Position numbers and translations under genes: made by a program
Shown here: positions 35,757-37,941 of the stretch, one piece after another
Position numbering within the stretch: the stretch's first letter is position 1
Layout: every line of letters starts with the position of its first letter
The notes under the pieces: generated by a model
Seen by the model: the letters and a program-made list of their open reading frames with translations, nothing else
The model's database searches: none
Told to the model about the DNA's origin: nothing
Sequence record: PZ445487.1
Origin: a phage
Length of the DNA: 64,000 nucleotides
Direction: 5' to 3' (one strand)

Positions 35757-35884
35757 AATAGACCTCCTTTACAAGTCAGATCTATTTATTACAGACAAAA
35801 AGAAACCCGATCATCCTGATCGGGCTATGTTAAACCATCGTGGGGATGGAAAGACTACTCACAGCAATTTCTGATAATGGGCGT

Positions 35885-35913
35885 TGGGAGAGTGCGTCGG
35901 GAATCGAACCCGA
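35885..35913 (-). other. orphan tRNA 3'-module (T-arm tcggg/cccga, 7-nt acceptor strand, no cloverleaf completed)
   Basis: Sense reads ...TCGGG-TTCGATT-CCCGA-CGCACTC-T-CCCA; nearest complementary 5' acceptor strand (GAGTGTG) is about 150 nt upstream at 36034..36040. Confidence 0.3.
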
Positions 35914-36047
35914 AACCGTCAGGACAATGAAAAGCTATTGCATTTCACCTTGCATATCCTCCGGCTTTCTTAACTTCCTTAACCCCAGATTGTTATGAAG
36001 TCGGCATGCACACCTTCTTCATCTTCAGGAAGTCACACTCATTGTTC

Positions 36048-36139: not shown

Positions 36140-36228
36140 TGGCGGAAGGTGAAGGATTCGAACCTTCGGGGGCTAAAAGCCCCACTCGATTAGCAGTCGA
36201 GTCCCTTAAACCTCTCGGGCAACCTTCC
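36140..36228 (-). tRNA. tRNA-Ser (anticodon GCU), class II, encoded CCA
   Basis: Hand-folded: acceptor GGAAGGT/ACCTTCC, anticodon arm CTCGA-CTGCTAA-TCGAG, long variable arm TGGGGC-TTTTA-GCCCCC, T-arm GAAGG-TTCGAAT-CCTTC, discriminator G, CCA. Confidence 0.85.
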
Positions 36229-36232
36229 AATT

Positions 36233-36316
36233 TGGAGCGGGAGAACAGGATTCGAACCTGTCCAGTGATCGTCGCCGATGATCAGTCGGCTACTGGCCAA
36301 CCCCTATGGCTCCCGC
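36233..36316 (-). tRNA. tRNA-Ile-like (anticodon GAU), atypical (12-nt variable region, one-nt bulge before acceptor 3' strand)
   Basis: Acceptor GCGGGAG/CTCCCGC (7 bp), anticodon arm GCCGA-CTGATCA-TCGGC (perfect), T-arm ACAGG-TTCGAAT-CCTGT, CCA encoded; D-stem has one A.A mismatch. Confidence 0.45.
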
Positions 36317-36319
36317 GAA

Positions 36320-36930
36320 ATTAGGACGGGCTTCACACCCGATTGTGCATTTGATCTGCCGTAGCCCAACTCCCCGCGCTTATCAGCGCCGATTGGTTAA
36401 CTGGCACCAGTGCCTTCTGGTTCGATCTCCTGGAACTTTACAGGCTTCGCGCCCGACCATTTCTGGAAGTTGGGGCATCGTTTTCGATGTGGAGTCACCC
36501 CATTTTATACACAGCTGGCTGCAACGCTTACTGTGTTTGGTCTACCACCACGTGCTGGGCCACGCTTGAGGACATCGGCCATCCTTCCTCAGCTAATCCA
36601 CGCAGTGATAGATTTGTATCAGAGTGTCCGGTGTAGCTTTCCGTGAGGTGCGCACTACTGTAGCCTCTACACTCTGAATTTGGTGGGCGTTACTTTCGTC
36701 GGGTTCAGATTCCGTTCGGCTATTGGACGTCGCTCGAGAGAACTTGTCGTTCGCGTACTTCGTGCTTACTTGCTTTCGTTTCACACCCATTGTTTGTCGT
36801 CGGGCGGGGGATTCAAACCCCAATCTTTAGTTTGCGTTTCTTCAAAGCTATCATATGTTCACTTTGAATACTAGACTCCCCTGGACATCAAAACAGGATC
36901 TCTATTCCATCCTGCAAGACCCGACATAAT
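36320..36930 (-). other. GC-rich ORF-poor spacer between tRNA genes with a T-arm-like motif (ggggattcaaacccc at 36806..36820)
   Basis: No convincing ORF; only a low-complexity 76-aa frame; candidate stable RNA. Confidence 0.3.
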
Positions 36931-36932
36931 CC

Positions 36933-37008
36933 TGGCGACGACGGCAGGACTTGAACCTGCGACATACGATTTAACAGACCGCCGTTCTACCGACTGAACT
37001 ACATCGTC
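36933..37008 (-). tRNA. tRNA-Asn (anticodon GUU), encoded CCA
   Basis: Hand-folded: acceptor GACGATG/CGTCGTC, D-arm GTTC-AGTCGGTA-GAAC, anticodon arm GCGGT-CTGTTAA-ATCGT, T-arm GCAGG-TTCAAGT-CCTGC, discriminator G, CCA. Confidence 0.8.
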
Positions 37009-37182
37009 TCTATTCTTACTTTCGTAAACATTCTTTATTCTGCATGAAGACCCAGGGCAGGATCATAACGATCGTAAGTTTTTGGATGAGACCCGTTCTT
37101 GATGCTCACCATCCGACCTTCCCAACTAGCGCGAATTCTGTTGGAAATTACCACCCAAATATTCTTCATAATATAGAACCCT

Positions 37183-37383
37183 TCAACTATGTTTATTCGC
37201 TTCGATCGCCCCTAATTGGGCGTCCGCGTCAGCTTTGGTGTCATGTGTCCCAAGAACTTTAGTCTTGGTGTGGTCAAGGACAACCCACTTATCGCCTCGC
37301 TTTTCAACAAACTCAACAATCTCTTTGTTGTCAGTAGCGAGACCATCCCACTCAGTAAGAAACTCACCGAACGTTTTCATCAT
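37183..37383 (-). CDS. small hypothetical protein (about 66 aa) inside the tRNA island
   Basis: ATG 37383/37380 after GGTGAG; CTAAATA-like motif (plus-strand tatttag at 37412..37418) upstream. Confidence 0.3.
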   Translation of the reverse strand: MMKTFGEFLTEWDGLATDNKEIVEFVEKRGDKWVVLDHTKTKVLGTHDTKADADAQLGAIEANKHS

Positions 37384-37420
37384 ACTCACCAATTGTTTAT
37401 TGAACAACTGGTTTATTTAG

Positions 37421-37495
37421 TGGTGACCCTGGCTGGACTTGAACCAGCGACCAATCCCTTATGAGGGGGCTGCTCTACCACTGAGCTACAGGACC
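37421..37495 (-). tRNA. tRNA-Met or tRNA-Ile2 (anticodon CAU), encoded CCA
   Basis: Hand-folded: acceptor GGTCCTG/CAGGGTC (two G.U), D-arm GCTC-AGTGGTA-GAGC, anticodon loop CTCATAA (one C.A mismatch in stem), T-arm GCTGG-TTCAAGT-CCAGC. Confidence 0.7.
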
Positions 37496-37941
37496 TTTTG
37501 TTTCTTCAAATTATCTAACACATGTGGATTGGATTTCAACATCTTCTTCATGTTGGCCTCCTTACTCAGCAATTGTAAATTCCACAATACGCAATTATAC
37601 TTATTTTCATCAACATGATCTATTTCAAACCCTTCTGGGACTAGACCATTAAATGCAACCCAGACAAACCAGTGTAGATATTTCCTGAAATATTTGCCCT
37701 TATATTCTACTTTGATTTGCAAATAACCAGTTCCATTGTCTACGCCCACCAAATATCTTTCAGGTAGTTTTTGTTCATATTCTCCAAACTGATTTTTACG
37801 GCGTATAGTCAGTTCTGGCTTTTTAATTTTTCCATAGTTGCTGACAAATACATGAATGCCAATTTTGTCTAAATACAACTCTTTCCAAATCTCTTCCATA
37901 ACAACTACCCACAGCAATATGAATTTGTTGTGTCCAATCAA
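37486..37941 (-). mobile_element. HNH homing endonuclease gene (free-standing, abutting tRNA-Met)
   Basis: EIDHVDENKYNCVLWNLQLLSKEANMKK is a classic HNH motif; AT-rich relative to surroundings; 3' end overlaps the 5' end of tRNA-Met; start ambiguous (ATG 37899 or alternative start 37941). Confidence 0.55.

Follow-up and report, generated by a model that had tools for sequence, protein, structure and literature searches.

Stable RNAs other than transfer RNAs (tRNAs) are known from the tRNA clusters of phages T4 and T5. In T4, rnaC (species 1, 139 nucleotides (nt)) and rnaD (species 2, 119 nt) are annotated as 'small, stable RNA' right after tRNA-Arg. The rnaC fold has a closing stem at its ends, long internal hairpins and, by the 3' strand, a canonical T arm. 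The T5 record (NC_005859) contains eight genes for 'stable RNA with unknown functions' among its tRNA genes, which range from 73 to 719 nt (RNAI, RNAIII, RNAIV, RNA1, RNA2, RNA2H, RNA3 and the 719-nt RNAX). Several of them are labelled tRNA-like, with closing stems formed by the 5' and 3' ends and CCA ends. Other structured non-coding RNAs, such as GOLLD, ROOL, the YrlA Y RNAs and transfer-messenger RNA (tmRNA), are often found beside tRNA genes in phages. YrlA contains a long terminal stem and a tRNA-like domain. Here we analyzed a region of 616 nt among the tRNA genes of a phage (sequence record PZ445487.1). Positions refer to the window, which is the whole 64,000-nt stretch that was analyzed. 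The region, located at 36317-36932, separates a 'tRNA-Ile(GAU)' gene from a tRNA-Asn gene as predicted by ARAGORN (Table 1). Its sequence is the same (100% identity) as that of Salmonella phage SS3, a Kuttervirus of the Ackermannviridae.

Similar to rnaC and rnaD, this region is located in a tRNA operon, on the same strand as the tRNAs and directly after a tRNA, and has no assigned function. An earlier note had described it as a GC-rich non-coding spacer that could encode a stable RNA like those of T4. The coordinates and content it gave are right, and so is the placement in a tRNA operon, with minus-strand tRNAs on both sides. High GC content was confirmed for 36150-36750 (0.53-0.55), whereas the right third (0.45-0.48) is the same as the flanks. 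Instead of one stable RNA, we found at least five modules that are mobile independently of one another and form a mosaic. Sequence comparison indicates that the region is a chain of small-RNA modules, five or six in number and each conserved separately, which are named E, D, C, B and A in the RNA sense. We propose that the 'spacer' is a set of tandem stable small-RNA genes on the minus strand, which would be co-transcribed and processed within the phage tRNA operon. We estimate the probability of this reading at about 0.6.

Judged from sequences and folds, the locus belongs to the same class as the T4 and T5 stable RNAs but to different families. Only module E resembles T4 species 1, in its position after a tRNA in the operon and in its closing stem, T arm and internal hairpins. 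It matches rnaC in architecture and size, and T5 RNA1 and RNA2 fold in the same manner. The suggested likeness to T4 therefore holds for E and not for B and C, which are not tRNA-like. Also unlike the T4 RNAs, the modules form a chain of five or six that is shuffled between genera. T5 itself contains neither B nor C.

Modular organization of the region

Nine loci of Ackermannviridae and 21 of IMG/VR were compared with the window to delimit the module blocks. About 20 distinct variants per module were aligned, out of about 350 phage records each. Among the Ackermannviridae loci the blocks are present, absent or reordered as units. In the RNA sense, their order is Asn-E-D-C-B-A2-A1-'Ile84'-Ser in the window (Kuttervirus) and Asn-D-x-B-x-C-A2-A1-Gln in Taipeivirus. 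Limestonevirus has Met-E-D-C-B-(fragments of A), and retains most of the chain despite a single tRNA. E is missing in Mansal and Ag3, and a 77-nt piece of A is missing in SKML-39 and P46FS4. In bering, Mansal and Ag3, tRNA-Tyr is inserted precisely between B and A, with a 6-nt overlap (AGACCA) at the junction. Like tRNA-Tyr, tRNA-Gln and tRNA-Trp are gained or lost at module borders. All modules are co-oriented with the tRNAs. Two additional records, OR844942 ('Enterococcus phage Efm 3-10') and MN871475 ('Pseudomonas phage Pa-sanjiao'), share 99-100% identity with Kuttervirus here, and are likely mislabelled or contaminated database entries.

Conservation was compared with Klebsiella phage Menlow as the reference. 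Identities to Menlow are 98.6% for C, 93% for A, 92% for D and 86% for B, in which the stem is replaced. The modules thus span 86-99%, close to the 88-96% of the tRNAs (tRNA-Met 88%, tRNA-Asn 96%) and above the 68-78% of the flanking protein genes. In its conservation, the 'spacer' therefore resembles the tRNAs and not neutral DNA. These data show that each module is a discrete unit maintained by purifying selection.

The region was also compared with known RNA classes. No ARAGORN tRNA gene and no Rfam tRNA match (E<=10) was found inside 36317-36932, while the tRNAs on either side reach 56-70 bits. ARAGORN found no tmRNA in the region. The Rfam search that had been suggested returned no Rfam 15 family inside 36317-36932 at the gathering threshold or at E<=10, with GOLLD, ROOL, tmRNA, Y RNA, riboswitches and ribozymes included. 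In this respect the region differs from GOLLD, ROOL, YrlA and tmRNA.

Four candidate open reading frames (ORFs) of at least 64 amino acids (aa) are located in the region, a 76-aa minus-strand frame (36593..36823) and three plus-strand frames of 64-87 aa. The 76-aa frame begins with TTG, and would encode 66 aa from an ATG start. It crosses segments whose order differs in Taipeivirus. All four frames contain stops or frameshifts in relatives, namely Ag3, SKML-39, P46FS4, Limestonevirus, Taipeivirus and bering. The DNA under the broken frames is still 80-99% identical. No ORF conserved among relatives was found in 36317-36932, in agreement with the non-coding assignment. Annotation pipelines leave such regions blank or give them spurious 'hypothetical proteins'.

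Structures and distribution of the modules

Module B is a long hairpin. Its P1 helix contains 13-14 base pairs (bp) in the window and up to about 24 bp elsewhere. The internal loops are GAUUA and GUGGCCCAG. P2 contains 8 bp (GCUGAGGA/UCCUC(A)AGC) and is capped by a 13-nt loop, AGGAUGGCCGAUG. ACCA is located directly 3' of B, at 36541-36538. In the structural alignment of 20 distinct variants (alignment A2), 98.7% of the cells are paired, compared to 34-46% with slid partners. Thirteen pairs are changed on both sides, 11 of the 13 in P1 and two in P2. P1 is found as three unrelated sequences, CUAUCACUGCGUG in Kuttervirus, CUGGAACCCGGUU in Taipeivirus and GAGUACAUUAGUU in podoviruses, around an almost invariant core. 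The covariation provides strong support for this secondary structure. The stems contain 31 G.U cells and 6 A.C cells, and the RNA sense is therefore the minus strand of the window. A pseudoknot, GGCCG:UGGCC, is discussed below.

The B family is defined by a variable terminal helix around the core GAUUA-GCUGNRGA-AGGNNGGCYGAUR-UCYNC(A)AGC-GUGGCCCAG. The copy in the window conforms to this definition and scores 91.7 bits with the covariance model R2, which gives 75-94 bits in Ackermannviridae, Gamaleyavirus and Kuravirus. Outside Ackermannviridae, B is present in Gamaleyavirus and relatives (PhAPEC5, KP8, UE-M3 and Mimir124) and in Kuravirus (YW01, ev_rybdy3 and XT32). ARAGORN called no tRNA within about 400-600 nt on each side of B in PhAPEC5, UE-M3, Mimir124, YW01, ev_rybdy3 and XT32. 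The exceptions are KP8, with tRNAs about 100 nt upstream, and UE-M3, in which the record annotates tRNA-Cys about 150 nt downstream.

In Gamaleyavirus and Kuravirus (loci L048-L052, L013, L065 and L069), a conserved block is found about 75 nt upstream of B. It consists of ..UUAGAUCUUACAUGCAAUAU.. followed by the hairpin GGGAGGAUUCGUCCCCUCCC. The block carries a GGGAGG...CCUCCC hairpin and is common to the two phage families, and it may be the promoter and 5' hairpin of a stand-alone small-RNA gene. In Gamaleyavirus, a small hairpin and U6 are located 3' of B, where B looks like a separate transcription unit. Scans for sigma-70 promoters and terminators around B in Kuravirus and Gamaleyavirus were uninformative.

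Module C is a three-helix RNA. P1 is formed by CAGAGUG/CACUCUG. P2 (4 bp, GAGG/CCUC) encloses CUACAGUAG and the 6-nt palindrome UGCGCA, and P3 (CGG/CCG) has the loop AAAGCUACA (..GCUACA). In the alignment of 14 variants (alignment A1), 98.1% of the cells are paired, compared to 30-45% with slid partners, and five pairs are doubly compensated. P2 is found as GAGG:CCUC, AAGG:CCUU, AUGG:CCAU and AGGG:CCCU, and as GUCG:CGAU in metagenomic contigs. The secondary structure of C is likewise strongly supported by covariation. The six bases after CUACAGUAG are UGCGCA, GUGCAC or UGAUCA, so that the sequence varies and a palindrome is found every time. As the loop keeps its self-complementarity while its sequence changes, two copies of C may pair with each other. 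The retroviral dimerisation initiation site is a 6-nt palindrome in a hairpin loop. Both have the palindrome at a fixed loop position; they are not homologous, and the likeness is an analogy to a predicted dimerisation of C.

The C family is defined as P1-UA-P2(4 bp)[CUACAGUAG + 6-nt palindrome]-R-P3(CGG/CCG)[..GCUACA]-GA-P1'. The copy in the window conforms to it and scores 88.3 bits with the covariance model R1. Scores of 75-89 bits, with exactly one copy per genome, are found in Ackermannviridae, T5-like phages and Ithacavirus. In T5-like Salmonella and E. coli phages, C is located directly 3' of tRNA-Lys, with a T5 RNA2 homologue on its other side. A tRNA-Lys relic was considered as the origin of C and rejected, as the blastn match is in fact just 3' of tRNA-Lys and overlaps it by 4 nt. 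In uncultivated phage contigs, the C core is located within a larger multi-helix element (L034 11765-12190; also L017 and L033) between ORFs of 80 and 739 aa. We take the 739-aa ORF, which is downstream of the core, to be the portal gene from its size and position. The contigs that carry the core-only C beside this putative portal gene contain no tRNA genes.

Among 5,426 complete E. coli genomes, none matched B and C. A pattern scan for them in 185,579 representative bacterial and archaeal genomes yielded chance hits only, as judged by covariance model score. On the basis of these scans, host origin or mimicry of B and C was rejected. In a metagenome scan, the B core was found in the same three phage groups only. 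B and C extend to other phage families, where some copies have no tRNA nearby, and are apparently undescribed cross-family RNA motifs with solid covariation. Their structures and loops are kept in unrelated phages that share enterobacterial hosts, and are not found in host genomes.

Module E is tRNA-like. It begins 7 nt past the CCA of tRNA-Asn, and comes after tRNA-Met in Limestonevirus. A 7-bp acceptor-like stem is formed by GUCGGGU (36925-36919) and GCCCGAC (36805-36799), followed by a discriminator G. The T-arm-like hairpin noticed earlier (ggggattcaaacccc, at about 36808-36822) is real, and reads UGGGG-UUUGAAU-CCCCC in the minus-strand RNA (36822-36806). It had been called degenerate, which implied decay; the sequence is instead conserved. 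In Limestonevirus, a compensatory change turns G-C into A-U in the T stem; elsewhere, the changes are one-sided and compatible with G.U pairing. E contains two internal hairpins, CAGGAU...AUCCUG and UUCAAAG...CUUUGAA, which take the place of the D and anticodon arms. E, the module with the T arm, is the most dispensable one. It is found in 102 phage records only, from Limestonevirus and a subset of Kuttervirus, and is absent from Taipeivirus as well as from Mansal and Ag3.

Module D is purine-rich, and is 80-99% conserved in all four genera. It has a 7-bp closing stem, UGGGUGU (36789-36783)/ACGCCCA (36690-36684), and its 3' end is an encoded CCA (36683-36681). Outside Ackermannviridae, a 17-nt D motif gave unrelated chance matches only in IMG/VR. 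D is conserved but weakly structured.

Module A is divided into A2 and A1. Module A2 contains the hairpins CACAGU...GCUGUG (36535-36510), UGGGG...CCCCA with an inner CAUCG-AAAA-CGAUG (36502-36471) and CGGGC-GCGAA-GCCUG (36455-36441), and a compensatory change from GGGG/CCCC to GAGG/CCUC. The segment equivalent to 36506-36430 is lost as a block in SKML-39, P46FS4 and Limestonevirus. Module A1 is 90-100% conserved across genera. It contains a branched domain (36427-36353) with the hairpin GGCGC-UGAUAA-GCGC, and a terminal hairpin CGGG-UGUGAAG-CCCG (36341-36327). In relatives the former hairpin is GGCGC-UUCG-GCGC or GGCGU-UACG-ACGC, with a compensated stem and UNCG tetraloops. A long-range closing helix of A (alignment columns 78-86 with 207-215) is doubtful, as SKML-39, P46FS4 and Limestonevirus have lost the 5' half of it. 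The plus strand of A1 has a likeness to a type I-E CRISPR repeat (TCCCCGCGC). By eye this is coincidental, since the strand is wrong and the remainder differs.

Proposed expression of the modules and alternative explanations

Every tRNA gene here is on the minus strand. Consensus scans revealed a sigma-70-like promoter candidate just 5' of tRNA-Met (10/12 matches to the consensus, which is no evidence of function) and an intrinsic terminator candidate at the operon end, the sole minus-strand terminator-like site within 38309-35804. The 616 nt at 36317-36932 therefore appear to lie within a single minus-strand tRNA operon. In our model, a single transcript would run from at or upstream of about 37510 to the terminator candidate. 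It would contain, in order, tRNA-Met, two small ORFs, tRNA-Asn, E-D-C-B-A, the 84-nt tRNA-like element, tRNA-Ser and further tRNA-like elements. Every module is closed by a helix of its own 5' and 3' ends, and the linkers between modules are A/U-rich and single-stranded (GGAUUAU, ACAAACAA, AAUU, AUACAAAU and UAUAAAAU). The host tRNA-processing machinery would excise the modules, with RNase P acting at the acceptor-like stems and RNase E and 3' exonucleases in the linkers. Protected by their terminal helices, the released RNAs would accumulate in stable form like T4 species 1 and 2 and the T5 stable RNAs. In B and C, the invariant loops may be trans-acting surfaces that bind a host or phage protein or RNA, and C may pair with a second copy of C through the loop palindrome. 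We infer transcription, processing, stability, trans action, dimerisation and the biological role of the modules from sequence comparison.

A further, tentative proposal concerns B and C. They could be two undescribed families of trans-acting small RNAs whose cores, compact and possibly pseudoknotted, bind a conserved host factor, perhaps by serving as decoys for RNA-processing enzymes or RNA-targeting defences. C would function as a homodimer through its loop palindrome, and both would be exchanged horizontally among virulent enterobacterial phages of at least four families (Ackermannviridae, Demerecviridae, Schitoviridae and Kuravirus). We regard this as possible but doubtful. If true, what are called 'stable RNAs' in phage tRNA clusters would form a mobile host-manipulating RNA toolkit and not be by-products of tRNA operons. 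The locus extends the phenomenon known from T4 and T5 to the whole of Ackermannviridae, and suggests that such tRNA clusters are assembled from discrete, exchangeable RNA modules. B and C are small (60-70 nt) and have clear covariation, which makes the old question of the stable RNAs experimentally approachable.

Several observations weigh against tandem stable RNA genes. Both strands were folded and compared with shuffles, and the folding z is -1.1 for the whole region and -1.5 to -2.1 for the modules, except D. The z of D is +0.2 (+0.22), and its internal structure is no better than chance. Thermodynamics alone do not mark the region as special; it stands above chance because of cross-genus identity and the covariation in B and C. 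The closing stem of D has one-sided changes only (U.G to U-A), with no pair changed on both sides, and A (36535-36317) has only two doubly compensated pairs. A and D hardly vary in sequence, so that their folds are predictions, and the overall branched fold of A is unproven. The pseudoknots considered for B (GGCCG:UGGCC) and C (GUAG:CUAC) are compatible but invariant; neither is supported by covariation, and one sequence breaks a pair in that of B. C is 98.6% identical between Kuttervirus and Taipeivirus but only 83% between two Kutterviruses, and the cross-genus identity may come partly from recent lateral exchange instead of selection. Homology searches against T4 rnaC and rnaD returned T-arm matches of 11-15 nt only. 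Likewise, blastn matches to the T5 stable RNAs are only of T-arm length, and R1 and R2 found nothing in the T5 tRNA region. In the literature on Kuttervirus/CBA120 transcriptomes, T5 stable RNAs and tRNA-like decoys, nothing was found on these elements, and no Kuttervirus transcriptome turned up.

Alternatively, the modules could be cis-acting scaffolds that space, fold and protect the tRNA precursor for RNase P and RNase E, and have no role after cleavage. Consistent with this, they are located between same-strand tRNA genes with no terminator between them. D and B have an encoded CCA right before A/U-rich linkers, which resembles tRNA 3' ends, and C starts a few bases from the 3' end of tRNA-Lys in T5-like phages. 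However, most B loci in Gamaleyavirus and Kuravirus have no ARAGORN tRNA within 400-600 nt on each side (tRNA-Cys is annotated in the UE-M3 record), and the C core is found beside the putative portal gene in tRNA-free contigs. In Limestonevirus, E-D-C-B is kept with a single tRNA. In addition, the loops do not vary in sequence among four phage families, a constancy that is needless for a spacer. The tRNA-free occurrences weaken a purely cis-acting role, and we consider it unlikely.

The elements could also act as DNA, in which palindromes or hairpins would be sites of recombination or targets of homing endonucleases or some other DNA-binding protein. This would explain why the modules move as cassettes with microhomology at the junction, as seen in the 6-nt AGACCA at the tRNA-Tyr insertion. 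An HNH endonuclease gene adjoins tRNA-Met, and the 6-8-nt palindromes of C are restriction-type sites (GTGCAC and TGATCA). The asymmetry between G.U and A.C cells in B, however, fits RNA of one sense and not duplex DNA, and the B stems are wholly replaced with their pairing kept. The C palindrome varies in sequence and stays self-complementary, unlike a protein recognition site. A role as DNA sites is thus quite improbable.

Neutrally drifting, decayed tRNA genes are a further candidate. The region shares the genomic context of tRNA genes and pseudogenes. E has an acceptor stem, a near-canonical T arm and a discriminator, and D and B end in an encoded CCA, with a 7-bp closing stem in D. tRNA-Tyr, tRNA-Gln and tRNA-Trp come and go at the module borders, and D folds no better than chance. 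The region differs from tRNA genes in that it contains no cloverleaf, anticodon arm, ARAGORN gene or match to the Rfam tRNA model even at E<=10. B and C have no cloverleaf features. The modules are conserved like functional tRNAs, far above the adjacent coding genes, and helices foreign to tRNAs are held by compensatory changes. Decay is therefore very unlikely. Finally, a role in encoding one or more small proteins, such as the product of the 76-aa frame, is hardly credible, as this frame, annotated with a ribosome-binding site as a hypothetical protein in Mooltan and also in a few other records, is broken in relatives while the nucleotides are conserved, and spans modules that are reordered in Taipeivirus. 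The three plus-strand frames are likewise broken.

The surrounding tRNA operon

The modules and the neighboring features are listed in Table 1.

Table 1. Positions of the modules and neighboring features in the window
Feature	Position	Strand	Basis
Sigma-70-like promoter candidate, TTGAAA-18-GATAAT, just 5' of tRNA-Met	37510..37539	-	consensus scan, 10/12 matches
tRNA-Met	37495-37421	-	ARAGORN
tRNA-Asn(GUU), upstream neighbor of the module chain	36933..37008	-	ARAGORN and Rfam, 70.2 bits
Module E, tRNA-like, ~128 nt	36798..36925	-	sequence, fold, presence/absence as a unit
Module D, purine-rich, ~109 nt	36681..36789	-	conservation, closing stem
Module C, three-helix RNA, ~60 nt	36616..36680	-	alignment A1 and covariance model R1
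Module B, long hairpin, 70 nt	36542..36611	-	alignment A2 and covariance model R2
Module A2	36430..36535	-	hairpins, compensatory change, folding z -2.14
Module A1	36317..36429	-	conservation, hairpins
84-nt non-canonical 'tRNA-Ile(GAU)'-like element, downstream neighbor	36233..36316	-	ARAGORN
tRNA-Ser	36228-36140	-	ARAGORN
Intrinsic terminator candidate, 10-bp stem and U-run, operon end	35804..35826	-	consensus scan

The downstream neighbor of the module chain had been described as tRNA-Ile-like, and is indeed non-canonical. The 84-nt element has a long variable arm and a C at position 37, and fails the Rfam tRNA model. Its best Rfam match is tRNA-Sec with 23.2 bits, below threshold. Some relatives carry the element whole, some carry a truncated form and some lack it. 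Rather than a working tRNA-Ile, it is probably a further non-canonical tRNA-like RNA.

Two more tRNA-like elements are located further downstream on the minus strand. The first, at 36136-36051, scores 48.7 bits with the Rfam tRNA model and has a 22-nt insertion in the anticodon loop. It was missed by ARAGORN in the window, and its homologue is called 'tRNA-??? (ag)' in P46FS4 and SKML-39. The second, at 35888-36039, measures about 150 nt. It contains an acceptor-like stem (GAGUGUG/CGCACUC), a T arm (UCGGG-UUCGAUU-CCCGA) and a long insert. This element is kept in 235 phage records, where it is labelled 'tRNA-OTHER', 'tRNA-Leu', 'tRNA-Ile' or not at all.

Upstream, the HNH homing endonuclease gene (37486-37941, minus strand) ends at the 5' end of tRNA-Met and holds the promoter-like site. 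T4 segB and T5 hegA, hegC and hegD, located in tRNA clusters, are parallels to this gene. The interval between tRNA-Asn and tRNA-Met differs by genus, and contains tRNA-Ser, tRNA-Trp, tRNA-Arg or small ORFs. In bering, it contains a 144-nt 'tRNA-OTHER' (L003 2267-2410), where the window has two small ORFs (37035-37407).

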